Source of the DNA: Mytilus edulis
Lineage: Eukaryota
Direction of reading: 5' to 3'
Length of the DNA stretch: 64,000 bases
NCBI RefSeq assembly: GCF_963676685.1
Contig: NC_092351.1
Span: 7,874,001-7,938,000, forward strand
Positions 1,282-61,419 of this stretch are shown here, piece by piece; position 1 is the stretch's first letter, and each line of letters starts with the position of its first letter. The notes below the pieces were generated by a model. It had not been told where the DNA came from and did not search any database. It saw nothing but the letters and a program-made list of their open reading frames with translations. A program made the position numbers and the translations under genes.

Positions 1282-3097
1282 CAGTCAACGTAAAACAGAT
1301 ACACGTATGATTGATCGCCTCCAACGATAACCATTAAATAGCAAGCTTATGGTTAGCCCATTTTATATATGAAGTTGAAATAGTTTTTCCTTAACGTGCT
1401 GGGCCATTAGCTACACATGAAATTTTGATAATGTCGATCAAAATTGATAAGGTGATCATATAAAATAAAACAAAATAAATAAATTTTAATGTGTAAATAA
1501 CGTACATTTCTTCAAAAAGATATTCATATGACATTAAGTATATTAATTCTCGATAAAAACCGATGCAATTGGCAGGTTAATAGATGTTAACAAATACAAT
1601 TTGCTACATTGTCAATTCTATAAACAATGTAAAAAAAATATAAAAGTTCAAATATCGATGAAAATTAATACAAATGTCACAACAGGATTAAAAATATCGG
1701 TCCCGGTTATCATCTCGAGACATCCATACCAGTCTAGGTCACAAGTCGAGGCTCTGATTCTGGTTGCAGGATGATAATTCCCGCTAAACACGGAAAAGGG
1801 CTCTTATGACATAGTATATAAATCTGTTTATCAAGTACTACCGTTTTGGATTTGATATCTTGTGGGCCCTGTATGCTGACATGGGCTGCTTCATTTCGGC
1901 TACTACCTATGCAAAATTAAGGTATGCGATGACATTCATACCATTGTAATTCGGAAGCTATGATATGGTATAAACTACTAAATTGGTAAACATTTTTAAG
2001 CTGTGTGCAATCTCTACTTTACACCAAGAATAGTACACAAACATATAAATAAATAACTATTAAATCAAGAAATATATAATCTTAATAAATTATCTTCTCT
2101 ATCCATAAATAAGTTGTTTTTGACTTTATAGATTCTCATGTATTTATTTTACATTTTCATTGATATTCTTATACATTTGGTTTAACTCTTATGAAATACA
2201 AATCAAAAACGCTATATTCGAAGGACTATATATATTAGGGTATATATTCATCTACATAAGGTGGGTTAACCCCGCGGGTACATATATGATTGTCGCATTA
2301 GTCAGAAGTTTGGAACCAGCATTTATATATGCGTAACAGAAGATATTGGGTTAACATTAATGGAATAGCAAGCCTTACAAATCAAACAATCGGAGAAATC
2401 TTATATCAAGGAGCAAGTGCCAAAGCATATACTAATGGGCAACACATACTAATTGACCAAAGCGCAGACTTTTGGCCTGCACATGTTAAAGGCCGTGCCT
2501 AGACCCATAATTGTTTACTTAGTTATTTTCTATGGATTTATGAGTTTCGAATATCGGTATACTACTGTAACCTTTATTTCATACCTCACTTTCTTACTTA
2601 TAATATCTCAAACTTATGGACTAAAGCACAAATTAATGCGCCAAAGTACAAACTAAGGAGCCAAAACAAAGACTTAAGCGCCAAAGCACAGTCTGATGCG
2701 CCATATGACAGACTAATGGGCATAAACCACGTGTAACAGCAGGGATAATTCATCAAATATAGACCGATGATAAAAGGATTTTTGTTGAAATCATTATCAA
2801 AGATTCTAACAGTCACCAGGAACGGGTAGAGCGAAAAATTGAAAAGCCAAAGTGGTACATTGCTACCCTATATTATTATCATATTTTTTGGAAACCTTAA
2901 CGGTTTTTACTCCATAATATAAAGATCACTCTTTTTACACAAATATTCATGTAAAACACTTAATCAAAATTTAAAGTTAAGACAGTCCGACGGGCATGAA
3001 TAAATTGGGATTGTTATACATCTATTGTTAAATAATCAGTACAGTGCATTGTCGGCATTCCACAAAGTAAACAAGCTCTAAACAACTATGTTATTCG

Positions 3098-4474
3098 TTA
3101 ATCAGATGTGTTAGTCGTTAATGCAACTGTGTTAGTCTTAACTCCAACTTTGTGAGTCGTTGCTGCAGATGTGTTGGGCGTTACTACAGATGTGTTAGGC
3201 GTTACTGCAGATGTGTTAGGCGTTACTGCAGATGCGTGAGGCGTTACTGTAGATATGTTAGGCGTTACTGCAGATGTGTTAGGCATTACTGCAGATGTGT
3301 TAGGCGTTACTGCAGATATGTTAGGCATTACTGCAGATGTGTCAGGCGTTACTGCAGATGTGTTAGGCGTTACTGTAGATATGTTAGGCGTTATCGCAGA
3401 TGTGTTAGGCATTACTGCAGATATGTTAGGCGTTACTGCAGATGTGTTTGGCTTTGTATCATCTGTGTTAGTCGTTACTGCAACTGTGTTAGGTGTTACC
3501 GAATGTTCCTCTTTTACTTTAGAGACTCCGAATGATTTGAAACATGGAATCATTTCTGAAAAGTTTTTCCTAAATCTTGTACTATTGTATGCGTACAGAA
3601 AAGGATTCATGGCTGCTTTGGACCATAGAACCCAGTTAAAAATTTCATATAGATTTTCGTTGACACATTCCTCACAGAATGCTATGATGATCGTGGTAAT
3701 AGTATATGGTACCCATGTGACAAAGAACACTACGACCAATGCTGCTAAAAATCGGACAGCTTTAACTTCACGTTTAGGCTTGCTATTGTTGTGATTTGAC
3801 GTCTTGCTTGGATTAACACCGACACTATTTCTCTTTCGTATCTCTTTATAAATAAGACCGTTTACTATGACAATACAACAAAACGGAATCCCAAATTCTA
3901 TAAATGCTGTTGCAGTTGTAAATGCTTTGTCGTAGGCAAACTGTACGTCACAATCTTCTTCTTCAACAGTATTTTCTCCCGTCCAAATATCCCATCCGAT
4001 TATTGCCGGTCCATATAACAGGAATGCCAATACCCATGTGACACCGATCTGTATACAAGCCTTTTTCATTGTGACTTTCGAAGAATAATGAGGTCCGAAT
4101 TTTAGCAACAGTAATCGATCTATACTGATAACCACCATCATTAATACAGATTCTAGACATAGGGTAAAATCTATAGTCATGTAACCTTTACAGAAATGGT
4201 AACCAAAAGGCCATGTATACGTTTCCAGTGTATACACGGCGTAAAACGGCATGCTAATGGTACTCAGTAGAATGTCAGTTATCGCGAGATTTAGTAAAAA
4301 CGCGTTGTAGACAGAATGAAGTTGTTTGTCACGTATGTAGGCTAGAATTGTCAATAGGTTTCCGACAAAGCCAAAAAATACACACAACGATATAATAATA
4401 CCGAATATAACAACTAAATATAACGGAAATAAAATATCCTCTTCTTCCTCCTCTGTTTCTGTTGTATTTATCAT
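3098..4474 (-). CDS. Class A (rhodopsin-like) aminergic GPCR, histamine H3/H4 receptor-like, single coding exon
   Basis: 458-aa ORF with 7 hydrophobic segments. Motifs: GN (TM1), NLAITD (TM2), WPFG..C (ECL1), TM3 Asp (MTIDFTLC), DRL in place of DRY, TM5 Glu (TAFIEFGIP, as in H3/H4), FFVTWVPY (TM6), NPFLY (TM7). Confidence 0.93.
   Translation of the reverse strand: MINTTETEEEEEDILFPLYLVVIFGIIISLCVFFGFVGNLLTILAYIRDKQLHSVYNAFLLNLAITDILLSTISMPFYAVYTLETYTWPFGYHFCKGYMTIDFTLCLESVLMMVVISIDRLLLLKFGPHYSSKVTMKKACIQIGVTWVLAFLLYGPAIIGWDIWTGENTVEEEDCDVQFAYDKAFTTATAFIEFGIPFCCIVIVNGLIYKEIRKRNSVGVNPSKTSNHNNSKPKREVKAVRFLAALVVVFFVTWVPYTITTIIIAFCEECVNENLYEIFNWVLWSKAAMNPFLYAYNSTRFRKNFSEMIPCFKSFGVSKVKEEHSVTPNTVAVTTNTDDTKPNTSAVTPNISAVMPNTSAITPNISTVTPNTSAVTPDTSAVMPNISAVTPNTSAVMPNTSAVTPNISTVTPHASAVTPNTSAVTPNTSVVTPNTSAATTHKVGVKTNTVALTTNTSD
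3101..3499 (-). repeat. Coding 21-bp tandem repeat: 19 heptads (consensus VTPNTSA) forming the GPCR C-tail
   Basis: Plus-strand unit GGCGTTACTGCAGATGTGTTA. The heptad register holds exactly to the stop codon. Confidence 0.95.
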
Positions 4475-6189
4475 TGTGTAGAATTTATTGCACTAAAATG
4501 AGAAATTACAGGCAAATTGCATTGATCAGTCTTAATATTTACAAAGCACATGAATAATAATCGACTTTGCTTTTTGTTGATACAAAATTACGCACAACGA
4601 TATAATAATACCGAATATAACAACTAGTAAAAGATGACGTCAAATACATTGAACACAACTTTCTGCAAATTTTATAAAAGGAAGGAATAAAATCATTAGA
4701 GAAAAAGATTACACCACTATATAACACGTGTAATACGATATTTCTCAACTTTCAACATTTTAATTATTAAAAAAAAAGGTACGAGGGTGGTTTTAAACAA
4801 ACACGAAATCAAATATTTCAAAACAAAATGAATAACTGAATTTATGAATAAAAATATAAAGCTTTTCTCTCCGAACTAAATAAGATGGATAAGGTATGGA
4901 ATAGACAAATGGATTACAATAATCATAGTATGGTAGCAAATTGACATAATGCTATTTGAAGGAGAGGAGCGGTACTTTTCGTTGATTTCGGATCAATTTA
5001 TAGATACTGTCACGAGCACTTAAAATTACCATAAATAGGTGACATCGGCTCATCGTTTAAAAACTTAAGATTAATGTTCGTAAATCTGACGTTAAGGAAC
5101 ACAAACTGAAATTGACAAAATACGATTAGGGTCGGGGCACCGTATGATGAAATTTGGATCAATGTAAAGAGATTGTGACGGTAAACGATTATAAATACAT
5201 TGTGGAGGAGTCGTCGGCGCATCGTGTAGGAAAATCTTTTTGACTATTTCAGGTTTTTATCTCAACTTCAGAATTTCTATACTTTTGTGCGATTGACCAC
5301 GCAACATCACTCCCCGCTAAACAAAATTCGTGTTTACCCGAATTATCATAAAAGGAACAAAATTAACTAAATAAGTATTTCAAATGGGGTGGTAGTACGA
5401 ATATTAAAAGTAAGCTATATTTATCTAATAAAACTATACTCAAATTTAAACCAAATGTCAAAGGAAAAAAATATGCACACGTCTGATATTTTGTCAATTT
5501 TCGTCGTGATAAAGAAACGGAAAATTTGCAAAAAGATTACTCTTGAAAAAAATAGACATTATAACTTAAAAAATGTATACTAAATCTGTAAAAATTAGGG
5601 TATCAATCATAAAAACATACAAAATAAATATGATATTGTAAAAAGTTTAACAACTTTTAAATTAGTCAATATGTATGCATTATAAAGTCTATCATCTATC
5701 AAACGCTCATTAAATGATTAAATAAATAAAAACGTCATTCATAATCATCTCATCGATATTTAAGTAAGGTAACTGGTCAACTTTTCCTGAGGAAGTAGGA
5801 ACCTTGGTTTCATAGTCATTTCAAGATTTATCAACGAAGATGTGTATATACATTGTGTAAGTAACGAAACAATGACTACTGAGCTGAAATGTCATTCGAG
5901 GACTTAAAGACCAACAGCAAAGTTATCGAATATTTTCCTTGTAGGTTTTAGCGTCCAAACATAAAGCATAAAAGTTGGTATATTTTACGGTTCAAGATGA
6001 TTGTCAAATCATGTTGATATCTAAAATTTTGAATAGAAATGACAAAACAAATAGATAAGCAAAAAAATGATAAACAAATTTGATTTTTTTTAAATAGTCT
6101 CAGATAGGGGAATGGCAATGGCAATACATCATTAATCCTGAAATTGAACTAACATTCAGGCAAACGAAATTAACAAAAGTGGTATATAC

Positions 6190-14972: not shown

Positions 14973-15089
14973 TGTATATGTATTTTTTAAATTTTTTTTT
15001 TGTATATTGAAATGACCCCTTGTTTTTGTCACCTGAAATCGTAAGTCTACAGTGTAATCCTAGGTAAAGACCTAGTTTCCGCAAATGTC

Positions 15090-15710
15090 AGATTCAGTGA
15101 TCACTTACATCTAATATATCCAAGTAAACTTGGAATGAAAGATACTACCGACACAGATAAATCTGCTTCATATACCTTTTTCTCGAAATGACTACTGATG
15201 GTAGGTTAAATACCAAAATTCTGACAAACGCGATGATTTTTATTTTCCTATAGTCACCATTTTCCATTTCTGGGTAGCAACATCCAGCATATGAAGTATA
15301 TGTGTCTCAATTGATACGTTACTCTAGAGCTAGCTCAAAGTACATTGATTTTGTTGAACGAGGAATACCGCTTTCTCAAAAGTTGCTAAGACAGGGCTAT
15401 GAATCAATCAAATTAAGGTCATCAATCAAGAAATTTTACGGTCGCCATCATGAGCTGCTTGGCATTATGACAAAAGTATGTCAGAAATCATATCTGATAT
15501 TCTTCCTCAGTCATAATAATCTTCCATCATTACCGAACTGAACAAAGAAATAACACGACGGTTGTCGTATACGGTGCAGGAAATGCTTACTCTCCCGGTT
15601 TTTAGTGGAGTTCGTGTTGTTTCTTATTAATTATTTGTAACTGTTGGTGTAAATGTCTTTTGGTTTTATGAGTCTTTGTTTATTCCTTGGTTTTGATTGT
15701 TATTGTCTTT
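15090..15710 (+). mobile_element. Naiad-like PLE family 2, 3' part and tail
   Basis: KDTTDTDKSASY, RDDF, VSQLIRYSRA...KKFYGRHH then a stop, with no downstream GIY-YIG. Structured 3' tail at 15552-15620. Confidence 0.85.
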
Positions 15711-18721: not shown

Positions 18722-18814
18722 GGTTATGTTCTTCTCATATATTTTATGATAGTATGATACTAAACCCCTAACGGGAGGGATTGTGCTTGATATTCATATG
18801 ATGCAGACATAATC
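18722..18814 (+). promoter_or_regulatory. Type II SECIS element (selenocysteine insertion sequence) in the PLE 3' UTR
   Basis: Helix I TCATAT/ATATGA, extended by GGTTATGTT/GACATAATC. Core ATGAT (18746-50) opposite TGAT (18788-91). Helix II AGTATGATACT/GGGATTGTGCT. AAA at 18762-64. Apical ministem CCC/GGG. Confidence 0.78.
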
Positions 18815-18831
18815 TTTCAATCAGTTTATTT

Positions 18832-19019
18832 ACCCTTCCGGAGCACCTGAGATCACCCCTAGTTTTTGGTGGGGTTCGTGTTGTTTATTCGTTAGTTTTC
18901 TATGTTGTGTCATGTGTACTATTGTTTTTCTGTTTGTCTTTTCCCTTTTTAGCCATGGCGTTGTCAGTTTGTTTTAGATTTATGAGTTTGACTGTCCCTT
19001 TGGTATCTTTCGTCCCTCT
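18832..19019 (+). mobile_element. 5'-truncated tail of Naiad-like family 1 nested in the family 3 UTR
   Basis: Matches 23437-23627. Flanked by direct repeat TTTATTT (18825-31 / 19020-26). Confidence 0.8.
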
Positions 19020-19522
19020 TTTATTTGAGGTCTGGAGATGGCATGTCAGTTAACTGCTAGTAGTCTGTTGTTACTTGTGTATTATTGTCATTTTATTTAT
19101 TTTCTTTTGTTACATCTTCTGGCATCGGACTCGGACTTCTTTTGAACTGAATTTTAATATGCCTATTGTTATGCGTTTACTCTTCTACATTGGCTAGAGG
19201 TATAGGGGGAGGGTTGAGATCTCATAAACACGTTTAACCCCGCCGCAATTTTGCGCCTGTCCCAAGTCAGGAGCATCTGGCCTTTGTTAGTCTTATATGA
19301 TTTTTAATTTTAGTTTCTTGTGTATAATTCGGAGTTTAGTATGACTTCCATTATTACTGTACTAGTATAAATATTTTTTAAGGGGCCAGGTGAAGGACAC
19401 CTACGGGTGCTGGAGTTTCTCGCTACATTGAAGACCAATTGGTGGCCTTCGGCTGTTGTCTGCTCTATGGTCGGGATGTTGTCGCTTTGACACATTCCCC
19501 ATTTCCTTTCTCAATTTTATTT

Positions 19523-21789: not shown

Positions 21790-22295
21790 TATCTTATTTT
21801 TTAGTAGCAACAAACAAAAGAACAATGTCAATTGAAAATGCTTTAATAACTATTTGATACTATATCTGCGCTTGAATTTTTACTTGATAACATTTTTGTT
21901 CCCTTTGGAGATTCTGTATATCGTCAAGTTATTGGAATTTCAATGGCGACTAACTGTGCACCACTTATTGTGGACCTGGTTTTGTGTTGTTATCAGTTAC
22001 AATTTATGACTAAAATCAGCAAAGATTATCAAAACAACATTTGATACAACAATTTAACAATACATTTAGATATTTGGATGATATATTGGCTCTCAATAAT
22101 GATAAAAGAGATGATGTTTCCTTTCCTTTCGGTAATTATCCATTTTTAGATAGTGACGTTCCCTGGTCACCATTTTATGGTGTTTATAAATCTCAACTTG
22201 TACGATTCGCCAGACTGATCAAGAAGGGATATAATTACGATACTGTTGTCAGGTCATTAAAGATCGCATATTTTTGGCTTTAATATTTATTCACT
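21790..22295 (+). mobile_element. Naiad-like PLE family 3 fragment with internal deletions
   Basis: LEFLLDNIFV.FGDSVYRQVIGI.M.TNCAPLI.DL, FNNTFRYLDD, KRDD.SF and RLIKKGYNYDTVVRSLKIAYF. Confidence 0.85.
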
Positions 22296-22296
22296 C

Positions 22297-23627
22297 TTTC
22301 TAAATTATTAACATCTATTTTATCATCAATCAATGACGGGCTTCAAAGTTATTGTGAAACTGCCCATTCTAGAGGTGGCGTGAATTAGATGTGGATTCTA
22401 AAAAAATACAAAGTTCTTATAGAGTACATACAATCTAACTCTCTTTCATCTTGTAATAGTATCAAAACATTTGACTTCTCTGCACTTTATACAAGTATTC
22501 CACATTCCAAACTAAATTGAAAGAGTTGGTATTGCTTTGATTCATAAAAAAGAATGGCCAACGAAGATACAACTATCTTGTCTTAGGAAGGTTTAAATCC
22601 TACTTTCTAAAGGATCACTCTGATTAAAACAAAAAATTCTCTGAAACCGACATTATCAAGATGCTTGATTTCTTGATTGACAACATATTAGTTACGTTCG
22701 GAGGACGTGTTTTTCAACAAGCTATCGGCATACCAATGGGAACGAATTGTGCCCCTCTTTTTGCCGACTTGTTTCTTTATTATTATGAGGCTGACTTCAT
22801 ACAGGAACTTCTTAGGAAGAAAGATAAGAAGTTAGCAATATCCTTTAACTCTACTTTCCGCTATATAGATGATGTTCTTCACTAAATAATTCAAACTTTG
22901 GTGACTATGTCGAATGCATCTATCCCATTAAACTAGAGATACAACAGATACAGTTAAGTCGGCCTCATATCTTGACTTACATCTAGAAATTGACAATGAG
23001 GGTCGATTGAAAACAAAACTTTACGACAAAAGAGATGATTTCAGCTTTCCAATTGTGAACTTTCCATTTCTAAGTAACAACATTCCAGCAGCACCTGCAT
23101 AAGGTGTATATATCTCCCAATTGATACGATATTCCTGTGCTTGCTTTTCCTATCATGATTTTCTCGATAGAGGGTTGGTGCTCACAAGGAAGCTATTAAA
23201 TCAAATGTTCCAAATGGTGAAGTTGAAATTATCTCTTCGTAAATTTTACGGACGCCATCACGAGTTGGTTGACCGTTATGGAATAACCGTTTCACAAATG
23301 ATGTCGGATATGTTTCTTCCGTCGTAACAACAATCCCCTTCCCTTTTATGAATCTGACCTACCGAATTAGACTATTTACCGGATTTGCTATAACATAAGA
23401 AACACGACAGGTGCCACATGTGGAGCAGGATCTGCTTACCCTTCTGGAGCACTTGCGATCACCCCTAGTTTTTGGTGGGGTTCGTGTTGTTTATTCTTTA
23501 GTTTTCTATGTTGTGTCACGTGTACTATTGTTTGTCTCTTTGTCCTTTTCATTTTTAACCATGGCGTTGTCAGTTTATTTTCGATTTATGAGTTTGACTG
23601 TCCCTCTGGTATCTTTCGTCCCTCTTT
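22297..23627 (+). mobile_element. Naiad-like PLE family 1, 5'-truncated RT plus structured 3' tail
   Basis: KTFDFS.LYT.IPH, GIPMGTNCAPL.ADLFL, FRYIDD, KLYDKRDDFSF and KFYGRHH then a stop at ~23327, with no C-terminal endonuclease. Confidence 0.9.
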
Positions 23628-27089: not shown

Positions 27090-27625
27090 TAGTTATCAAA
27101 GGTATCAGAATTATAATTTAATACACCAGACACGCATTCGTCTACACAAGACTCATCAGAGACAATCAAATCAAAATAGTTATAAAGTCAAGCAAGTACA
27201 AAGTTGAAGAGCATTGAGGACCAAAAATTCCAAAAAAGTTGTCCCAAATACGGCTAAGGTAATCAATCTGTTGTAATCGAAGATTTATAGAAATGACCAT
27301 ATAATTTATATTCATGTCATCACCGAAGTGCGGACTACTGGGCTGGTGATACCCTCGAGGACGAAACGTCCACCAGCAGTGGTATCAACCTAGTGGTGTA
27401 AATAGTTATCAAAGGTACCAGGATTATAATTTAATACGCCAGACGCGCGTTTCGTCTACATACGACTCATCAGTGACGCTCAGATTAAAATAATTATAAA
27501 GCCAAACAAGTACAACGTTGAAGAGCATTGATGACCCAAAATTCCAAAAAAAGGTTGTGCCAAATACGGCTAAGGTAATCAATCTGTGTCTGGGATCAGA
27601 AAATCTTAGTTTTTCGAAATGTTCA
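27090..27625 (-). ncRNA. Retrozyme family A tandem copy (two hammerheads; 27436-27480 intact) in the lectin intron, sense orientation
   Basis: Reverse complement of 27436-27480 reads AGCGTCA-CTGATGA-GTC(gtatgta)GAC-GAAAC-GCGC-GTC^TGGCGT. A second degenerate copy is at ~27125-27165. Confidence 0.88.
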
Positions 27626-30671: not shown

Positions 30672-31127
30672 GTCTGTTGTTATTTATGTATTATTGTCAT
30701 TTTGTTTATTTTCTTTGGTTACATCTTCTGACATCAGACTCGGATTTCTCTTGAACTGAATTTTAATGTGCGTATTGTTATGCGTTTACTTTACTACATT
30801 GGTTAGAGGTATAGGGGGAGGGTTGAGATCTCACAAACATGTTTAACCCCGCCGCATTTTTGCGCCTGTCCCAAGTCAGGAGCCTCTGGCCTTTGTTAGT
30901 CTTGTATTATTTTAATTTTAGTTTCTTGTGTACAATTTGGAAATTAGTATGGCGTTCATTATCACTGGACTAGTATATATTTGTTTAGGGGCCAGCTAAA
31001 GGACGCCTCCGGGTGCGGGAATTTCTCGCTACATTGAAGACCTGTTGGTGACCCTCTGCTGTTGTTTTTTATTTGGTCGGGTTGTTGTCTCTTTGACACA
31101 TTCCCCATTTCCATTCTCAATTTTATT
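30672..31127 (+). mobile_element. 5'-truncated copy of the Naiad family 3 UTR / SINE-like repeat, preceded by an A-run
   Basis: Colinear with 19062-19522. Confidence 0.85.
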
Positions 31128-33810: not shown

Positions 33811-36059
33811 TAATCTGATAGTATTATGTTTAGAAATGTATCTAAAAAATATTTTTTTATAGATATTTATATCTAAAGATTATTTATGAAGTGTCCGTAA
33901 CTAAGGAAATGATTCTATTTCTAGTCCAAAATGTTGAATATTGTTTTCTTTTCTTTTTTTTTTTAATTTCATGGTTTCCTTCCTCCTATTTCAATCCGTA
34001 CATATACAAGCATGCAAAATTGTTAAACATCTGTAATACCTTAATGGAAAGCACTAAAAAAGCAATTCAATGAACACAAGTATATTCGAAGGTAAGTTGT
34101 GCTTTACAGTCAAAAGATAATGTTAAAGAATCATATTTTCAGGAAATTCTGTATAAACCAAAAAAGTATCATTTTTATAGAATTGATGGGGAAAGTAGTC
34201 AGTGCGTATTGTATTGGATCATCATCATTTCTTTATATTTAAGACAACAGCGAAAGTGTACGGATTTCCTCTTCAGAAACATATTCTACTACATTCTCTC
34301 CTTTAAATAAAAAGCAACTACTTAGTTTAGATATGTGTAGGGTTTTATTTCAGTTGTGAAATGAAATAATGCTCCATTCAATATCAACATGTATGTTAGT
34401 TGACATTTGAAATTAGATTTATATAAATCTATTATATTACAATCGAACAGCATTATGTTCTTAAAAAATGTAAATATTGATATCAAATACACTTTAATGT
34501 GTTACTAATGTCAAAAGTAAAATCACAAAAATACTGAACTCAGAGGAAAATCAATTCGGAAAGTCCATAATCACATGGCAAAATTAAATAACAATACACA
34601 TCAAAAACGAATGGACAAGAACTGTCATATTCCTGACTTGGTACAGGCATTTTCAAATGTAGAAAATGGTGGGTTAAACCTGGTTTTATAGCGCTAACCC
34701 TCTCACTTAGATGACAGTCTCATCAAATTCCGTTATATTTACAATGATGCGTTAACTAAACAAACACATTAAATAAAATAGTCAAAATATGGGTACAACA
34801 GTCATCATCGTGTAATAGTTTTATAAGGAACAATTTAACAGAACACAAAAACATCTATAAAACACATTCATTGATTTGCGTAAAGTTGTCTATTTTGAGA
34901 ATATCAAAAACAATAGATCTGTGAAGTGTCGGTAACTCAAATAATTTACTTTTAATTACTGTTAACATGAGAAATTCATTTTATTTTGTGATTTAATTTC
35001 CAAGGCACTATTTGTCAACTTCAAGTTTTTGTGAACTACACGTATTTCATCTTTCAATTCAATTTTCTATTCTTACAATAATTCTATTTTTTACTTTTTA
35101 CTCAAGGATGGTAGTATACTTCTGCAGGATTCAAACATATTTTTTGTTTGTTTTTTGTTTGTTAGTATTTTGTTAATTGATTGTATTTTAATTATCTTTG
35201 TGCCGTACACTTGTGATATTTTATTAAAGACACACATTTCCAAAGGTTAAATAGAGAAAGTTACGTACCCAGCGATTACCCAACCAGATCAATAGAGAAT
35301 ATAAAACTTTTTTTTTCAGTAATCAAACTTAAAACATTAATTATTCAGGATCACTTGTTTTCTATTGTTCTGACATTTATTATTGTTCAGCTAGCAACCT
35401 TGCTGTTTCTTCTTTGTGTTTTATCCGTTTGTATATTAAAAATCGTTTTTGGTATACAAAAATAAAATAAAAATATTCAAACTAGTATTCAATATTATTT
35501 ACCATGATTAAAAATTATTGATTATATCTGATACTTTCTAGCAAGTTTAGTATATTCATGCTTTTTTGATAAATGTGAGATTAAATATATGGAAAAAAAG
35601 ATGTAGTATGATTGCCTATTAGACAACTCTCCACAAGAGATCAAATGACACAGAAATTAATAACTTTACGTCACCGTAACAATTCAAACGAGAAAACTAA
35701 CGGCCTTATTTGTGTACAAAAAGAAGGAAATTTCTATATGATATCATTCAAAACATAAATCATACATTGATCCGTGATAAATAAAGGCAACAGCAGTATA
35801 CCGGTGTGCAAAGGTCATAAACCCATTGAGAGAAAACAAATCTGAGTTACAAACTAGAACCAATAGAAACACATCCACTCCAAGAGGAACACACACGAAC
35901 AACAGGAACACTGAAGTGACAAACCAAAACAACTGTCTCATTCCTGACATGGTACAGGACATTAGAATACAAAATGGTTAATTGAACCTGGTTAAAAGGC
36001 AACAGCAGTATACCGGTGTGCAAAGTTTTTTGGCGTATTGAATTTTAAACCTGATGCTT

Positions 36060-37118: not shown

Positions 37119-37147
37119 CGATGAATTTATTATGCAATCTTTTGCGT

Positions 37148-37351
37148 TTAAAGACAATAACAATCAAAACAAAGGAGTAAACAAAGACAAAACCAAGGCT
37201 CATTTACATCAACAGTTATAAATAATAAATAAGAAACAACACGAACTCCACTAAAAATCGGGAGTGAAATCAGGTGCTCCGGAAGGGTAAGCATTTCCTG
37301 CACCATATACGGCACCCGTCGTGTTATTTCTTTGTTCAGTTCTGTAATGAT
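37148..37351 (-). mobile_element. Naiad-like family 2 3' tail with intact structured motif (37238-37325)
   Basis: Reverse complement of 15520-15710. Continues for a few nt after 38860. Confidence 0.85.
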
Positions 37352-38860
37352 GTTCCGAGACCACAATTATTTCGTAGTGCATTTCTTTTAGAACAGAAAT
37401 GAAAATTAAAAAAATCCCACCTGCACTTTCTCAGTGAAATTTTTACAGTGTGTTGTACTACTTTTGGGACAAATTAAATAAAAATTATAGAAAACTTCAT
37501 TGGTCCTAACTCAAAATATGGACAATTTTATGTTTAGGGCGTCTTGAAATCTTTTGACAGCTTCCGAAGTGCTAAGTTTTAACCTTTTTTCAGCTGGACC
37601 AAATCACTACTTTCCTTTAAAATTCTGGGCCCAAATTTTTTTACAGTGTAATTTCAGCCCCCTACTTGCAATTTGAGGCAATAAACATGGAGAAAAAAAT
37701 TTGGAAGGGGTATAAAATTAATGGCAAGTAACCCACTGTCAACACTAGGGACTATATTCGTGGACAACGAAAATCAAGGGACGACAATTGTGGTCTCGGA
37801 CCTAATAGGATAGAAATAGTTGACCAATCTTAAAACAACTTGGTATGACCAAAGCTTATTAAATTATAACACTGCTTACATAACAATAAGTTTCATAACA
37901 ATAGGATATATAAACTATAAACATTTGGGGCTTTAAAAATTAAAATATTGCAAAAAATACTTTTTAAATGCCTTAATATATAATTTATCATGTACTAAAA
38001 GCAAAAGAGTACTCATTTGATTTATCAGACTTAGCATAATTATTCAAAAGTCTAATTTATATGAGCCTGCGCCTAAAAATTGAGGTTTTTCAATGAAAGG
38101 GGGCTTTACATGAAGATGTAATATTTTCCAGCAATTTTAAATTTGTGAAGCTTTTTGGTTATAAATAATCCTTACATATGTATTGAATGTACTTTAAATG
38201 GAAAGAAAAGTTACAAATAACATATTATCATATTAGTTTAAAAGGGTCTTAGGCCAAGTAAGACTGGAAAAAATTTAGGGTCAATTTAGGCCGTGCCACA
38301 AATTTACATTACAAAATGCGTATTGAGGCTATAAGAAATAAAAATTTGTGTCTTTTTTGTCATTTACATACTCATGTGATATGATACAAAAAATCTGAGC
38401 ACAAAAAGACTCTTGCAATTAACTTTTCTTGCAGACAGTATGGTCTGATAAAAAGATTTTTGACTTTTTAGCGAAAAACTTGCATGCAATTTTAGTCTCA
38501 ACAGGCTTATATTCAAACCACTTGCTATCCTACAGAAGAAAAGAAAAATATTATGTGAAATGGAACAGGTACAATAGTCATTGTAAAGGACTTTTGATAC
38601 AAATTTACTGAGGTCTTTATTATGAACTTCAAATTTGATGTACCAAGCTCCCCACTTCTGACTTCATCCAAACAAGGCGTTAGACAAGGGTCATTTATAC
38701 AACAAATTGTGCACACATTGTCTAAGATAATCTTCTTTTCTGTAGAATCAGAGTTCATAAATAAGTAAAAGAACTAGATAAAGTCATAGAAACACAAATA
38801 TTGACACATGAAAACCTGTCAGATAGAAAGACAGGATGCCATCATTTATGGTCTCGGACC
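37352..38860. mobile_element. Composite TIR DNA element with one left end and two right ends
   Basis: Left end GTTCCGAGACCACAATT. Inner right end AATTGTGGTCTCGGACC (37786-37802). Outer right end ATTTATGGTCTCGGACC (ends 38860). TGAT is duplicated at 37348-51 and 38861-64. Confidence 0.8.
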
Positions 38861-47240: not shown

Positions 47241-48637
47241 AAGGGAAGGGCATTAGCTGTCAAAACGATGTTCATAGCTGTAAAATCGATGTTCATAGCT
47301 GTCAAATCGATGTTCATAGCTGTCAAATCGATGTTGATCGATTTGATAAGAGTTTTCATGTTTAAATTATAAGATGCGTAAACGTATATCCAAAAAAACA
47401 AAACATAAAAGACATACAATAAACAAAGCATGGACTGGATATTATTATCAGCATTACGTATGTATTTGAGACGAGATCTATACTGATTAGCCTCGGTAGA
47501 CTGCCGATGGATCATATAACCCGATAAAAGATAAAGAGATAGCGAGGACGTGCTTTCAGATCTGTTTGATTTTATACTATGAGTGGGAAAAGTGGCAATC
47601 ATTGTTTTTACCTGTATAAGAAGGATATTTTGTAGATCGAATCACTCTGCGACCAAATGGTTCACCCTGGTTTCACTCACAATGTTGACATTATTTTAGT
47701 CAATTATTTATTTTATTGTTAGTAGCAGCATGCTAACGCCCTGTTCATGCGTAAAAGAGGGACGAAAGATGCCAGATGTCAAACTCATAGATAGAAAATA
47801 AACTGACAACGCCATGGCTTAAAATAAAAAGTCAAACAGACAAATAATAGTACAGAAGACAAAACATAGACAAAGCAACACGAACCCCATATGATCACAG
47901 GTGCTCCGGAAAGGTAAGCAGATCCTGTAAACCATTTATAGGTTAGTGGTTGAATTAAAGGTCACAGTGATACGGATTCAATAAGGTTAAATTATTTACT
48001 TGGATGCAGTTTTTGAGCTTATTTTGACAAAGTTTTGCCAAACTGACATGACTGCTTTTTCATTTTGTTTTTTATTTTATTAAATCTATAGAAATGCATG
48101 AAAATGATTGCACACGAAAGCTGATACACATCATCAAGCCCATGCATTGTTCTTTGTCAAGTGATTAAACAATCATGTCAATTTTTGATATTATGCTTAC
48201 TTGCGTTTATTTTAAACAACCACAATGTAAATATTGAAAGTTGACATTAAGCATTGCTTAAAACATCTTGTTTACTTATTGTTTGCTTATTTGTGGAGAA
48301 TGAGTAACATTACAAAAATACTGAACTCCGTGGAAAATTCAAAACGGAGAGTCCCTAATTAAATGTCAAATTCAAAAGCTCAATCCCCGAGGGTATCACC
48401 AGCCCAGTAGTCAGCACTTCTGTGTTGACTTGAGATATCATTGATATGTTCATAATAATAAATTAACTGTTACCAAAATTTTTGAAATACTAAGGTTTTT
48501 CAACCTCAGGAAAAGATTACCTAAGCTGTATTTGGCAAAACGTTTAGGAATTTTTGGTCCTAAATGCTCTTCAACTTCGTACTTTTTTGGGCCTATTAAA
48601 CATTTTTTTTTATTCAAGCGTAACTGATGAGTCTTGG
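47241..48637 (+). repeat. Segmental duplication block B (paralog 60337-61677), including a Naiad tail relic and a retrozyme A fragment
   Basis: Colinear from AGGGAAGGGCATTAGCTGTC to GCGTAACTGATGAGTCTT. Confidence 0.9.
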
Positions 48638-51675: not shown

Positions 51676-52711
51676 GTTTCGTCCCCGAGGGTATCACCAG
51701 CCCAGTAGTTAACACTTCGGTGTTGACATGAATATCAATAATGTGGTCATTTTTATAAATTTCCTGTTTACAAAACTTTGAATTTTTCGTAAAACTAAGG
51801 ATTTTCTTATCCAAGGCATAGATTACCTTAGCCGTATTTGGCACAACTTTTTGGAATTTTGAATCCTTAATGCTCTTCAACTTTGTATTTGTTTGCATTT
51901 ATAAATATTTTGATATGAGCGTCACTGATGAGTCTTACGTAGACGAAACACGCGTCTGGCGCACTTTATTATAATCCTGGTACTTTTGATAACTATTTAC
52001 ACCACTGGGTCGATGCCACTGCTGGTGGACGTTTCGTCCCCGAGGGTATCACCAGCCCAATAGTTAACACTTCGGTGTTGATATGAATATCAATAATGTG
52101 GTCATTTTTTTTTAAATTTCCTGTTTACAAAACTTTGAATTTTTCGTAAAACTAAGGATTTTCTTATCCCAGGCATAGGTTACCTTAGCCGTATTTGGCA
52201 CAACTTTTTGGAATTTTGGATCCTTAATGCTCTTCAACTTTGTACTTGTTTGTCTTTATAAATAATTTGATATGAGCGTCACTGATAAGTCTTATGTAGA
52301 CGAAACGCGCGTCTGGCGTACTAAATTATAATCCTGGTACTTTTGATAACTATTTACACCACTGGGTCGATGCCACTGCTGATGAACGTTTCGTCCCCGA
52401 GGGTATCACCAGCCCAGTAGTTAACACTTCGGTGTTGACATGAATATCAATAATGTGGTCATTTTTATAAATTTCCTGTTTACAAAACTTTAATTTTTTT
52501 CGTAAAACTAAGGATTTTCTTATCCCAGGCATAGATTACCTTAGCCGAATTTGGCACAACCTTTTTGGAATTTTGGATCCTTAATGCTCTTCAACTTTGT
52601 ACTTGTTTGGCTTTATAAATATTTTTAAATGAGCGTCACTGATGAGTCTTGTGTAGACGAAACGCGCGTCTGGCGTACTAAATTATAATCCTGGTACTTT
52701 TGATAACTATT
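51676..52711 (+). ncRNA. Retrozyme family A: tandem array of ~355-nt units with three type I hammerhead ribozymes
   Basis: Unit periods 355 and 357 nt. Cores at 51925, 52282 (CTGATAA variant) and 52639 read GCGTCA-CTGATGA-GTCT(n5)AGAC-GAAAC-GCGC-GTC^TGGCG. Predicted cleavage after 51956, 52313 and 52670. Confidence 0.93.
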
Positions 52712-54779: not shown

Positions 54780-57508
54780 TGAATTATGATCACTATTTCA
54801 AACAAATCACTATTTCAAACAACTAAGGATCACTAAACAACAAGAATTTAGTACTAGACACCATCTTTCTAATTACTGTCATTATATTGACAATAATGTT
54901 ATTCCCAGTGGCTTATGTATTAAAGCACTGCCTCAAACTACCGGCAACCTGTATGATACATTTCTACGTAGGTGGGATCAAACCCTATTTCACTGTTCCC
55001 TCCGTCTACTCATACTCCTTAGAGAACACTGTATTGAACATCTAAAAAACTTAACACTTCAATTTTACTCCTTGTCTCACGCTTGCAAAAAAGATCTAAC
55101 AGCAAGCGAATTCGAGAACATCCAAGAGCGCCTGAGAGATATAACCAACACTAAGACCGCCACTCTCCGCTCCAGACAAAGATGCAAATTTCAACGGGAT
55201 GGTACTTCTTTCCCATCCATTAGTACAAAAGAAAAAAAATAATAAAGCCAAAAATAGACATTTCAGACGTAGACCTCAAGTCCTCAGCAACAAGATCAAT
55301 ACCGTTGTTAATCTCTCCAGCAAACAACTTACTGAGGACGAAACTTCATAACTGCCTAGAGCCTTAAACTTTTGTCCAGTCCCAGGTCCAGTGAATCATA
55401 CTAAATTGTCTGATGAACTGGATAATTTTGCCAGGAGCCTCCGCATCAAGGAACATTTTGCATCGAAAGAGGACGATAGCACCACCTCAGATAGTGACTC
55501 TGACGACTCCAACGAGTATAGATTTAGAAAGAAAAGTAACTGGGTCCCTAAACCAAGTAAAAACACCACCTTAGAATCATTTATAGACAATGTTAAAACG
55601 GATATACTTACAAATGTAAAAATAAAAAATCAGACCTATGACAATTTAACACCTGGTGAACGTGTGGCTTTAACAAATTTGAGAGATAATGACGACATTG
55701 TTATTAAACCTGCAGACAAAGGGAGTGCAGTTGTCGTCATGGACAAATCTAACTATATGTCCAAGTGGCCATTCGCCAATTAGATGATGACCGGTTTAAC
55801 AAAAAACTTAATTCGGACCCCACCCTCCAATTCAGCCAGGAAATAACAGAATTTTTAAAGGAAATGTTTGACAATGACATCATTGATATAGATACTCTCA
55901 AATATTTAAAACCTGAAGATTTTAAACCTGGGCGATTCTACCTGCTCCCTAAAATTCATAAACTTTGTAACCCAGGAAGACCAATCGTCTCAGCTAATGG
56001 TCATCCCACCGAAAAGATATCCGAATTCGTTGATTACTATCTTCGACCACATGTAGAAAACTTGCCATCTTTTATAAAAGATTCTACAGATTACCTACTA
56101 AAAATGCTGGATTTAAACCCTCTACCTGCCAATACTACTCTTGTCACAATGGATGTCACCTCCCTCTATACGAATATTCCCCATGCGGATGGTATTGAAG
56201 CATGTAGAGAAGTTTGAAACGCTCGATCTCTTAAAATTCCACCGACTGATTGCTTAGTAGAAATGCTTTCTATGGTTTTGAAAAAGAACAACTTCACATT
56301 CCAAGGTGAACACTATTTACAGACAAATGGCACTGCTATGGGTACAAAAATGGCTCCATCTTATGCCAATATATTCATGGGTAAAGTTGAAAAGCAACTA
56401 CTGGAGTGCTCCATCGAAAAATCGCTTTCCTGGTATCGATTCATTGATGACGTTGACATGACATGGGACAAGGGAGACCAAGAATTACAAACTTTTATAA
56501 CATATGCTAACAATCAACACCCTACCATCAAATTCACCCATGAAACATCTAATTCCACCATAAACTTCCTTGATTCATCTAGCACCCTCTCTGTAGGTAT
56601 TATTATCACAGATATATACTCTAAACCTACAGATACTCATCAATACTTGTCGCCTGAAAGTTGCCATCATCCACACTGCACGAAGAGCATTTCATACAGC
56701 CAAGCTCTCAGAATAAGGCGAATCTGCTCCTCTGAAGACACTGCAAAACAACGTATGGGGCAGCTCAAAGGACATTTGAAAAGAAGGGGATATAAACACA
56801 AAGACTTCAAAAATAGTTTTCTAAAAGCGGAATCCATCCCCAGAAGCAGTCTGCTAACTTACAAAGAAAAACAGAAAAGTAAAAGAATTCCATGTGTGCT
56901 CACTTACCATCCATGCCTGAGAAATAGTTTCAAGACCATTCTTGATCATTGGACAGCAATCGATAAAACATTCTAAGTTATCCAAAATCTTTCCTGAGCC
57001 TCCCATGATTGCCTTCAAACAACCTAACAGCCTGAGAAATATACTTATCCGTGCTGACCTTTCCAAACCTAATCATACTGTAGGTAATTGCCAGCCTTGT
57101 GGGGATAAGCGCTGCAAATGTTGCAACCAATTGCAGCATTCATCAACATTTCACAGTAAGACCACAGAAAAGACATACAAGATCTTCTGCAATGTCAACT
57201 GCAAAAGCTCAAACGTGATTTACGTTCTTGAGTGTCCTAGATGTGGTCTCCAATGTGTTGGTGTATCTATGGAGCCATTTCACAAACGCCTTAATGGCCA
57301 CAGGAGTGACATCACAACAAAACAGTATATACCTGTCAGCCAACACTTCAGGTTACTAGATCACAATCTGAAAGATTTTGATCACATGAAGATCCTTGTG
57401 ATCGAACAGGATTGTACATGGCAAAATAAGCAAAGAGAGAATCGGGAGAAGTTTTGGATAAAAACACTTGGTGTCCTACATCCATATGGAATCAATAGAA
57501 AGAAATAA
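54780..57508 (+). pseudogene. Disrupted PLE polyprotein: RT plus Cys-rich linker plus GIY-YIG endonuclease
   Basis: Motifs [76 protein letters not shown]...CVG, R.NGH, HF and REKFWI..L....P.GIN. Frameshifts and a TGA at 56215. Confidence 0.92.
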
Positions 57509-59019: not shown

Positions 59020-59415
59020 TTAATAGTTATCAAAAGTACCAGGATTATAATTTCATACGCCAGACGCGCGTTTCGTCTACATAAGACTCATCAGTGACGC
59101 TCACATCAAAATAGTTAAAAAGCCAAATAAATACAAAGTTGAAGAGCATTGAGGATCCAAAATTCCAAAAAGTTGTGCCAAATACGGCTAAGGTAATCTA
59201 CTCCTGGGGTAAGAAAATCCTTAGTTTTTCGAAAAATTCAAAGTTTTGTAAACAGGAAATTTATAAAATGACCATATAATTGATATTCATGTCAACACCG
59301 AAGTGCTGACTACTGGGCTGGTGATACCCTCGGGGACGAAACGTCCACCAGCAGTGGCATCGACCCAGTGGTGTAAATAGTTATCAAAAGTACCAGGATT
59401 ATAATTTCATACGCC
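59020..59415 (-). ncRNA. Retrozyme family A young insertion: one full unit plus a 40-nt terminal redundancy, intact hammerhead at 59056-59101
   Basis: AATAGTTATCAAAAGTACCAGGATTATAATTTCATACGCCA occurs at both ends. The insert is absent from the paralogous site at ~49453. Confidence 0.92.
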
Positions 59416-61419
59416 ACACCATGGGTGCCACTTAAAGCATTATCTCTAACATACTCTCTGTAGCATAAGTTTTCATTGTTTATGTTTTGGTTTGTCTTGT
59501 TCGATTGTTGTGAAATGTTGTGCACTATTTATTGTCTGTTATTACTATTTTTGCAATTCATTGTTCTATTTATGATTTTTTAAATTGTCTGCTTGTTTTC
59601 ATTTTCACCTCATTTTCCTTAATAACTTTTCTAAACTCATACAGTGGCCTTCCAAGGAACTTTCAATTGTTGCTTATAATAACCTGGGTAAATGAAGTAA
59701 AATAATACAATGTAATACTGTAGATATGATTTGTATTGGTATCCTTTGTTTAAAAGTAGAGAGTATACATAACAATAGTGCAGATAAAAAAAGGAAAATG
59801 TCACACATATAGATGTTTTTCAAATACATTGAAAAGACATGTTATTTTTTTTCCATGTATTATTTTGTTTGTCATTTATATCATAATCTCCAGTTTGTAG
59901 GCTATTCATAATTAACATTGACATATCTCAATACTTCATAACAGTTTGACAAACAAAATTGTTCCTACTAACTCTAAAATGTTTTTTCTATACCTATAAC
60001 AAATAAAATGCTATGTTTTTTTCTAAAATTTTGTCCACCAGTTTGTTGGTTACATAAAAATACAATCAATATCCAGTTTACAATTTAATTTTAGCATTTA
60101 GGTATTTAAATCTTTCCAATATAGGATATCTTTAAAAAGAAAATGTTTTATACTTCACACATCATTAAGTTCCAAATCTTAGTATTGTTATGAGAAAAAA
60201 CATTTGATCTTAGGAATATATGATGATATAAAACTCAATATATTGTTTGCTGTCAATAAATTTGTGTTACAGCTTTGAGGCATTATCACTGTGACTGGGG
60301 TATAGAAATATGGTCACTTGGTCTTCTCCCGACCGGCAGGGAAGGGCATTAGCTGTCAAATCGATGTTTATAGCTGTCAAATCGATGTTCATCGATTTGA
60401 TTAGAATTTTCATGTTTAAATTATAAGATACTTAAACGTATATCCAAAAAAACAAAACGTAAAAGACATACAATACACAAAGCATGGACTGAATATTATT
60501 ATCAGCATTTCGTATGTATTTAATCTATACTGATTAGCCTCCGCAGACTGCCAATGGATCATATAACCCGATAAAAGATAAAGAGATAGCGAGGAGGTGC
60601 TTTAACGGTCTGTTTGATTTTATACTATGAGTGGAAAAAGTGGCAATCATTGTTTTTACCTGTATAAGAAGGATATTTTGTAGATCGAATCACTCTGCAA
60701 CCAAATGGTTCACCCTGGTTTCACTCACAATGTTGACATTATTTTCCTGTTAGTAGCAGCATGATTACGCCCTGTTCATGTGTAAAAGAGGGACGAAAGA
60801 TGCCAGAGGGACTGTCAAACTCATAGACAGAAAATAAACTGACAACGCCATGGCTTAAAATAAAAAGTCAAACAGACAAATAATAGTACAGAAGACAAAA
60901 CATAGACAAAGCAACATGAACCCCATATGATCTCAGGTGCTCCGAAAAGGTAAGCAGATCCTGTAAACCATTTATAGGTTAGTGGTTGAATTAAAGGTCA
61001 CATGAATACGGATTCAATAAGGTTAAATTATTTACTTGGATGCAGTTTTTGAGCTTATTTTGACAAAGTTTTGCCAAACTGACATGACTGTTTTTTCATT
61101 TTGTGGTTTATTTTATCAAATCTATAGAATTGCATGAACATTATTGCACAGGAAATGCTGATACATATTATCAAGCCCATGCATTGTTCCTTGTCAAGTG
61201 ATTAAACAATCATGTCAATTTTTGATATATGCTTACCTGCGTTTATTTTAAACAACCACAATGTAAATATTGAAAGTTGACATTAAGCATTGCTTAAAAC
61301 ATCTTGTTTACTTATTGTTTGCTTATATGTGGAGAATGAGTAACATTGCATAAATACTGAACTCCGAGGAAAATTCAAAACGGAGAGTCCCTAATTAAAT
61401 GTCAAAATCAAAAGCTCAA

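Follow-up and report, generated by a model that had tools for sequence, protein, structure and literature searches.

The window analysed here is a 64,000-nucleotide stretch of the Mytilus edulis genome. At 22294..23627 on the forward strand it holds a 5'-truncated, frameshifted copy of a Naiad Penelope-like retroelement, family 1, made up of the 3' half of the reverse transcriptase (RT) gene, a 3' UTR with an RNA motif at 23401..23488, and a tail. At 92% identity it matches positions 2022-3370 of an intact 3,370-bp unit in the genome; the reading frame of the copy is disrupted, with RT remnants in three frames across 22296-23324. The intact unit, from a natural tandem array in the same genome, has a 1,000-codon open frame with an N-terminal GIY-YIG-like domain, CxC, DKA and a C-terminal RT. 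Pfam places GIY-YIG at residues 135-172 (E 0.036) and RVT_1 at residues 645-854 (E 1e-4), each below its curated cut-off; a search for a solved structure of the RT found none. The accessible text of Craig et al. (2021, PMC8557442) gives as marks of Naiads an N-terminal GIY-YIG, CxC, DKA for DKG, a C-terminal RT and tandem units. The 3,370-bp unit has its GIY-YIG endonuclease domain N-terminal to the RT in one ORF, with CxC and DKA (not DKG) present as DCTC and PADKAP. It also occurs as partial-tandem insertions with pseudo-LTRs, in three arrays of 1.7-2.8 units with a period of 3,370. The Naiad-like identity proposed in a first-pass annotation of the window is thus correct. Units within one array differ at 0-4 of up to 3,370 bases, while array A differs from arrays B and C at 79-82 bases and B from C at only 5. 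In family 1 about 75 nt separate the stop codon from the motif, and about 140 nt lie between the motif and the sharp 3' end of the element.

A second motif copy, at 37238..37325 on the reverse strand, lies in a short 5'-truncated Naiad family 2 element (about 37145-37352); it matches the R2 model at 71.9 bits and has two changes from a typical family 2 copy. Both 23402-23489 and 37238-37325 stand directly 3' of a Naiad-type reverse transcriptase stop codon. As had been noticed at the outset, they share an architecture between dissimilar flanks: the first and the reverse complement of the second are 79.5% identical over 88 nt, and the flanks do not align. A third copy, 15552-15620, had been offered as a further intact example. 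This family 2 motif (15552..15618, forward strand, behind RT remnants at 15084-15463) has lost 21 nt internally, including the second palindrome, CACCUG and one half of two helices, and so does not preserve the architecture.

The window also contains several family 1 tails. One, 5'-truncated inside the motif, is inserted in another Naiad family's 3' UTR (18830..19021, forward). Another, 5'-truncated at CAG with P4 partly deleted (47751..47927, reverse), has a segmental duplicate at 60782..60963 (reverse), and a family 1-like tail starts inside P4 (25426..25590, forward). A Penelope-like element with a C-terminal GIY-YIG-like end, broken across several frames, lies at 54790-57508 on the forward strand. 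On the reverse strand, 3098-4492 is a 464-codon open frame for a seven-transmembrane receptor-like protein with a 7-residue repeat at its end.

The motif has a fixed order of parts, given here with the positions of the family 1 copy, which matches the R2 model over 23408-23460 at 55.9 bits. The 5' half begins with the 5' strand of the outer stem P1 (23401..23407, partner 23482-23488), then the invariant CGGGUG (23408..23413, one G changed to A in the window copy), which can pair with CACCYG (P2) or YACYC. A 10-nt palindrome follows (23414..23423), a predicted intermolecular helix, then 1-3 nt, the invariant CAG (23426..23428), a candidate core strand, and the 5' strand of P3 (23429..23433). 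The partner of this strand, 23456-23460, lies across P2, so P3 would be a pseudoknot or a pairing in trans. The near-invariant GCU-YACYC (23434..23441), also candidate core and similar to the cleaved twister-sister strand GCUCA, ends the 5' half. The 3' half consists of 0-3 nt, the 6-nt palindrome UCCGGA (23443..23448, one change in the window copy), also a predicted intermolecular helix, 0-1 nt, and the invariant CACCYG that forms the 3' strand of P2 (23450..23455, again with one change). It closes with the 3' strand of P3 (23456..23460, first base changed), the P4 hairpin (23461..23481), variable in sequence and length between families, and the 3' strand of P1 (23482..23488). CGGGUG, CAG, GCU-YACYC and CACCYG together make a near-invariant core of about 22 nt. 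The family 1 copy is worn: it departs from the intact unit at 23409, 23445, 23453 and 23456, four changes that all fall at paired or invariant positions.

Within the core, GGGUG has two mutually exclusive partners, CACCY and YACYC, both of which keep pairing through U or C opposite G. No two-sided change was found for either pairing in the aligned families, and one published Naiad tail breaks the last pair of GGGUG:YACYC. CGGGUG:CACCYG is probably the pairing used, because P1, P2, P3 and P4 then follow one another with almost no unpaired bases between them.

The first-pass annotation was right that a structure is present, and its drawing differs from the fold described here. Its outer stem, AACACGA/TCGTGTT, occurs in both copies and starts one base earlier than it had been placed, at 23401. 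The compensatory change from ACCCC/GGGGT to ACTCC/GGAGT is seen between the two copies, and the 10-nt segment said to stay self-complementary is palindromic in both families, as CCACATGTGG and, in family 2, usually as CCGTATACGG. Four pairs of the proposed GGTGC/GCACC helix hold but never vary, and the fifth is not upheld, being unpaired in 7 of 17 lettered rows. The proposed GCAG..TGC hairpin does not survive comparison, since all four pairs form in only 6 of 21 families and two or fewer in another 6. Two elements were missing from the drawing: the 6-nt palindrome, which is the same in families 1 and 2, and the strongly covarying 5-bp P3, GATCT/AGATC in one family and GAAAT/ATTTC in the other. 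Minimum-energy folds of single copies reproduce the earlier drawing and miss P3, which crosses P2.

We searched for the motif by its core. A loose core pattern has 8,455 exact matches in the M. edulis genome, against none for the reversed pattern, and the exact 20-nt element 3' end has 12,726. A core-only pattern found at least 122 loci on metagenome contigs and 6 on viral contigs. These 128 loci were divided by GC content, which is independent of the pairings. The 25 high-GC loci behave as chance matches (P3 with at least four pairs in 2 of 25, a full 6-nt palindrome in none), and all six viral matches belong to this chance class. Among the 103 low-GC loci, many of them decayed copies of two families from one record set, P3 has at least four pairs in 85 and the 6-nt palindrome is complete in 58. 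A set of 185,579 prokaryote genomes gave 28 matches, of which 27 were chance, none of these having four or more P3 pairs or a full palindrome. The other is a true motif on a 407-bp scaffold of a bacterial draft genome (L481, RAYO01000111.1), probably animal contamination since it is nearly identical to a published bivalve Naiad tail.

We clustered 151 loci and took a single member from each of 21 distinct families, setting aside eight singletons that resemble decayed members of larger families and two chance hits (L100 and L127, with no YG after CACC and no pairing). When 19 rows were aligned, both sides change in 13 of the 18 named pairs and 97.3% of cells pair; none of 500 shuffles reaches the covariation score, and slid controls are 38-54% paired. 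The proposal of a covarying RNA structure at the Naiad 3' end is therefore upheld. Across the 21 families P3 is paired in 103 of 105 cells with 19 distinct helices, and all five of its pairs change on both sides. The 10-nt palindrome is paired in 95 of 105 cells with a different sequence in every family, and for both this palindrome and P3 none of 100,000 permutations reaches the observed pairing. The 6-nt palindrome is perfect in 17 of 21 families (shuffle mean 1.6, maximum 7). The shuffle tests treat families as unrelated and are inflated by relatedness, yet nearly every family has its own sequence. P1 and P4 together score at least 10 in 16 of 21 families, against 1 of the 27 chance hits; in 3 of 21 families no P1 was found within the range searched.

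The Naiad consensus sequences in the supplement of Craig et al. provided an independent set, which we searched for CGGGTG alone. Eleven tails were found, CAG and the other core strands being present in all 11, and a twelfth stood beside a header. The motif therefore lies unannotated in at least 12 of the 54 published consensus sequences, a lower bound because line breaks split some words. The hosts of these 12 tails are one hydrozoan, five bivalves, two hemichordates and probably, to judge from the order of the file, a fish. Judged by eye, both palindromes are complete in all 12 (G-U allowed) and P3 is full in 10. As the metagenome core is fixed by the search pattern, its invariance rests on these published tails. 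The same core stands behind RTs that are 33-65% identical, the most distant (33%) being that of L153. Judged by this comparative evidence, the motif is a real, ancient and uncatalogued RNA fold.

The palindromes point to pairing between two copies. The two central neighbours of the 10-nt palindrome are Watson-Crick complements in 19 of 21 families, as AU, UA, CG or GC, where shuffles give a mean of 6.2 and a maximum of 15. Adjacent bases cannot pair within a strand, so the retention of this complementarity is explained only by pairing with a second copy. Duplex energies of the isolated palindromes lie between -11.6 and -19.8 kcal/mol in 14 of 15 families, against hairpin energies of 0 to -2.6. 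Nine G-U cells and one A-C cell occur across the 10-nt palindrome and P3, and this tolerance of G-U but not A-C points to sense-strand RNA rather than DNA. The motif thus shows self-complementary segments kept by compensatory change, as in palindrome-driven dimers, and a second copy is available since the three tandem arrays supply one. Intermolecular pairing of both palindromes is strongly implied by the pattern of change, and the dimerisation first proposed from one palindrome now extends to two.

The fold does not correspond to a catalogued class. The first-pass annotation had suggested an unknown ribozyme or an RT-recognition element, and no Rfam ribozyme model fits: a scan of both strands, HDV-like models included, found nothing at the motif, whether in the window (E up to 1) or in 20 family loci (E up to 10). 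On a 161-nt stretch the only matches were two sub-threshold chance ones. A permuted form of a ribozyme such as pistol, hatchet or others would escape the Rfam covariance models. Hammerheads have CUGANGA and GAAA core strands around three helices, and the motif does not belong to them: it has no conserved GAAA, its CUG varies to CCG, and it lacks an Rfam match. The same scan detects hammerheads elsewhere in the window, of type I, in a retrozyme-like 357-bp tandem repeat and its dispersed copies (51676-52711, 27436-27479 and 59057-59100). Twister has the strands GA-GRG, N|AA and U-CYC-AA-GC with pseudoknots T1 and T2; the motif has no conserved AA, and a twister descriptor finds sister families and not the motif. 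HDV-like ribozymes are nested double pseudoknots that include P1.1 and P4, and their catalytic C lies in J4/2, just ahead of the P2 3' strand. In the motif at most two bases separate CACC from the 3' strand of P3, which leaves no room for P4 and J4/2.

We found no description of the fold in the literature searched, subscription journals and repeat databases being outside its scope. The accessible text of Craig et al. (PMC8557442) reports that canonical hammerheads are absent from Naiads and describes SECIS elements and hammerhead core strings, with no such fold; the host element is the one they characterised. A 2026 preprint on animal retrozymes, in the text available, refers to Naiads solely as a clade.

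Two sister Naiad families in the same genome have a different structure in the same place. Their 3' UTRs carry a twister-type core with two palindromes, and their RT fragments are 35-57% identical to family 1. These cores lie in the window in the tails of the two families, at 19197-19271 (forward), 30806-30880 (forward) and 34632-34704 (reverse). The two palindromes occupy the place of the twister helix P1, and pseudoknot T1 varies between GGG:CCC and GGT:ACC. The type was assessed by descriptor and by eye, and Rfam gives only a weak twister-P1 match (E 7.9). Five published mussel and clam Naiad tails show it too. The two motifs thus share the element group, the 3' UTR position and a pair of sequence-variable palindromes, but the twister hallmarks GA-GGG, N|AA and U-CCC-AA-G are absent from our motif and the two were never seen in one element. 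When the motif model was run on 30 sister-family loci it gave one strong match, about 290 nt beyond the tail end, and one weak match. An RT tree of 16 rows has no starred branch and does not place the twister-bearing families either among the motif-bearing ones or outside them. Since the slot elsewhere holds a known catalytic core with the same two-palindrome design, it is best read as having one function. The suggestion that the motif replaces the hammerhead in Naiads gains indirect support by this analogy. A SECIS-like element at 18736-18800 on the forward strand (Rfam 30.9 bits, gathering threshold 35), behind RT remnants of a twister-bearing family and just before the inserted family 1 tail, fits the selenoprotein Naiads reported in the accessible part of PMC8557442.

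Our preferred reading, with a probability of about 50%, is that the motif is a self-cleaving ribozyme of an undescribed class that works only as a dimer. The argument for catalysis is an indirect one. Some 22 nt are unchanged behind RTs with as little as 33% identity, while the paired parts vary. Other Penelope-like elements have, in the same place, hammerheads that act as dimers through a palindrome (PMC4209133, PMC6765202, as far as the accessible text goes). Catalysis is favoured because both these hammerheads and the sister twister-type cores occupy the slot. As cited in the accessible part of PMC6765202, the Penelope-like hammerheads share with our motif the terminal-repeat position, the palindrome dimer and a partner supplied in tandem. 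The motif differs in lacking a CUGANGA/GAAA core, in having two palindromes rather than one, and in its pseudoknotted junction. The novelty lies in the RNA fold; dimer-dependent ribozymes are already known from the terminal repeats of Penelope-like elements.

In such a ribozyme P1, P2 (CGGGUG:CACCYG), P3 and P4 would meet with nearly no unpaired bases and the palindromes would join two motifs, the CAG-P3-GCUYACYC strand of one perhaps docking on the junction of the other. We put forward more tentatively a fuller version, in which the class, native to animal genomes, is an obligate domain-swapped dimer that counts tandem units through its two palindromes, so that cutting and circularisation would be confined to Naiad transcripts of several units. 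On the preferred reading, and by analogy, a transcript running through a tandem Naiad would contain two motifs 3,370 nt apart, and their paired cleavage would release unit-length RNA with its ends held together for joining into a circle. Rolling copying of the circle would then give head-to-tail arrays, a cycle modelled on that in the available text of PMC4209133. Single truncated copies in host transcripts would stay uncut. The near-identity of units within an array accords with this cycle but also fits read-through from a tandem parent, and arrays B and C differ at only 5 bases.

RNA data and insertion boundaries were examined for traces of cleavage. In one raw RNA run, of which about 6/100 was covered, read ends did not accumulate in the motif of either family. 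Three contig runs with the raw run on family 1, and two runs on family 2, likewise gave no end pile-up in the motif; their coverage was of mixed strand, because of embedded copies. According to the available part of a study of an anole element, the only Penelope-like element so tested, its hammerhead required protein to cleave, cleavage could not be seen in RNA-seq, and insertion in vitro did not depend on it (PMC11167929). The null result from RNA runs is therefore uninformative, as a validated hammerhead likewise left no signal. The anole results weaken both our null results and any claim that cleavage matters for mobility.

Insertion 5' ends were taken from 104 3' ends, 10 of which were dropped (nine alignments short of the 3' end and one duplicate). 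The ends of the remaining 94 genomic copies are about twice as common inside the motif as elsewhere (23 of 78 at risk against 57 of 410, p = 0.0014), with no single-base pile-up, no base having more than two. This spread excess fits polymerase stalling at the structure. A targeted set took 100 of 369 matches listed and, with 26 set aside for internal deletions, indels or duplication, gave 74 boundaries, read by eye. Eleven of these fall at 3179 and eight at 3178 (19 of 74 together), a mild peak over a mean of 4.4, which could be explained by flanks that often end in T and so shift apparent starts onto two T's. Boundaries in the upstream half, among 100 of 399 matches listed, allowed no cut site to be called. 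About 30 of those 100 are one repeat, with only the 3' part of the motif and a fixed AT-rich flank. Differences between tandem units are scattered and bounded no cut site.

A possible but less favoured explanation is that the motif is a non-catalytic signal for dimer linkage and protein loading, its palindromes joining two element RNAs or two units. Its core would bind the telomerase-like Naiad RT, set a fixed 3' start for copying and permit jumps from unit to unit. The two covarying palindromes would suit such a role, for which MoMuLV and HIV-1 are precedents: MoMuLV PAL1/PAL2 and the HIV-1 DIS likewise use two palindromes, one of six bases in a loop, to join retroelement RNAs (the accessible text of PMC7357161). 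Those signals differ in lying in the 5' leader of packaged genomes, whereas the motif is a compact 3' UTR structure with an invariant core in a capsid-less element. The sharp 3' end downstream of the family 1 motif, the lack of a cleavage signal in reads or insertion ends and the dispensability of anole hammerhead catalysis in vitro (available part of PMC11167929) all accord with a signal. A protein-binding site might be expected to drift with the protein, but the core is unchanged behind RTs 33-65% identical. Against a signal, too, sister families with RTs closer than those of some motif carriers have a twister-type core instead, and in the anole element the accessible text places the protein-binding region in the first 172 nt of the ORF, independent of hammerhead cleavage (PMC11167929).

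It is improbable that the motif is a rewired known class. The most plausible would be a twister-sister-like one, cut at GCU(U/C)|A with CAG opposite in the dimer. The motif strands GCU(C/U)A and (G)CAG resemble the catalytic-loop strands of twister-sister (Rfam RF02681, consensus GCAAG opposite GCUCAU) and of the human twister-sister-like forms, and on this reading they would face each other in the dimer. In the available text on the minimal human forms, G-C-(U/C)-A-G stands opposite G-C-U-C|A, with C-G and U-A pairs, and a C to U change at the cut is partly tolerated (PMC11620745). Twister-sister has a loop closed by two helices, and these have no counterpart in the motif, where a single run of five bases both follows CAG and precedes GCU. 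The motif lacks the GUGCAAG loop, has another base for the G ahead of CAG in 4 of 21 families, and matches no Rfam model. Among the 74 insertion ends read by eye from 100 of 369 matches listed, two fall at the candidate A, and 16 lie at 3179-3181, against 13 expected.

A last notion is that the two repeat families are alike only through common descent, or through a palindrome that matters as DNA, and that no RNA structure is under selection. Modest single-copy folding z-scores (-1.7 to -2.4) and the inflation of shuffle tests by related families are on its side, but it seems very improbable and already largely refuted by comparison of sequences, in which paired regions change and keep pairing across Cnidaria, Mollusca and Hemichordata, G-U cells outnumber A-C cells by nine to one, and the flanks are unrelated.

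The preferred reading, a dimer-dependent ribozyme, would add to the 12 classes of small self-cleaving ribozymes counted in the abstract of PMC10761166. New classes have been found by looking where known ones usually sit (available part of PMC6765202). A motif in such a place, with unusually clean covariation and no catalogued family, lends itself well to a cleavage assay, and a positive or a negative result would bear on how Penelope-like elements make tandem insertions and on why Naiads seemed able to do without ribozymes. If the motif does cleave as an obligate dimer, thousands of single copies in host RNAs would be silent and Naiad lineages would have filled one slot with three unrelated catalytic cores; an RNA switch that needs two copies to come together would also be useful as a tool. 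If it does not cleave, the motif would even so represent an RNA dimer signal in a capsid-less retroelement, of which no description was found in the literature searched.

Several variants were met along with the typical motif. A third variant in this genome (L228, L282-L286; about 12 of 81 matches) has a different 10-nt palindrome and a damaged core, and no RT was found near it within the fetched stretches. Palindromes with unpaired centres at L191:294-350 and L168:56-108 could fold as hairpins, as possible monomeric forms or through decay. Eight metagenome contigs (L131, L168, L141, L193, L163, L184, L105 and L211) have complete motifs with no RT detected, and some of these hosts may be non-autonomous elements. 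The tails of Naiad-1_Chem and Naiad-2_Chem, both hydrozoan families, share a second conserved block, GC-rich and about 45 nt long, about 110-170 nt upstream of the motif.
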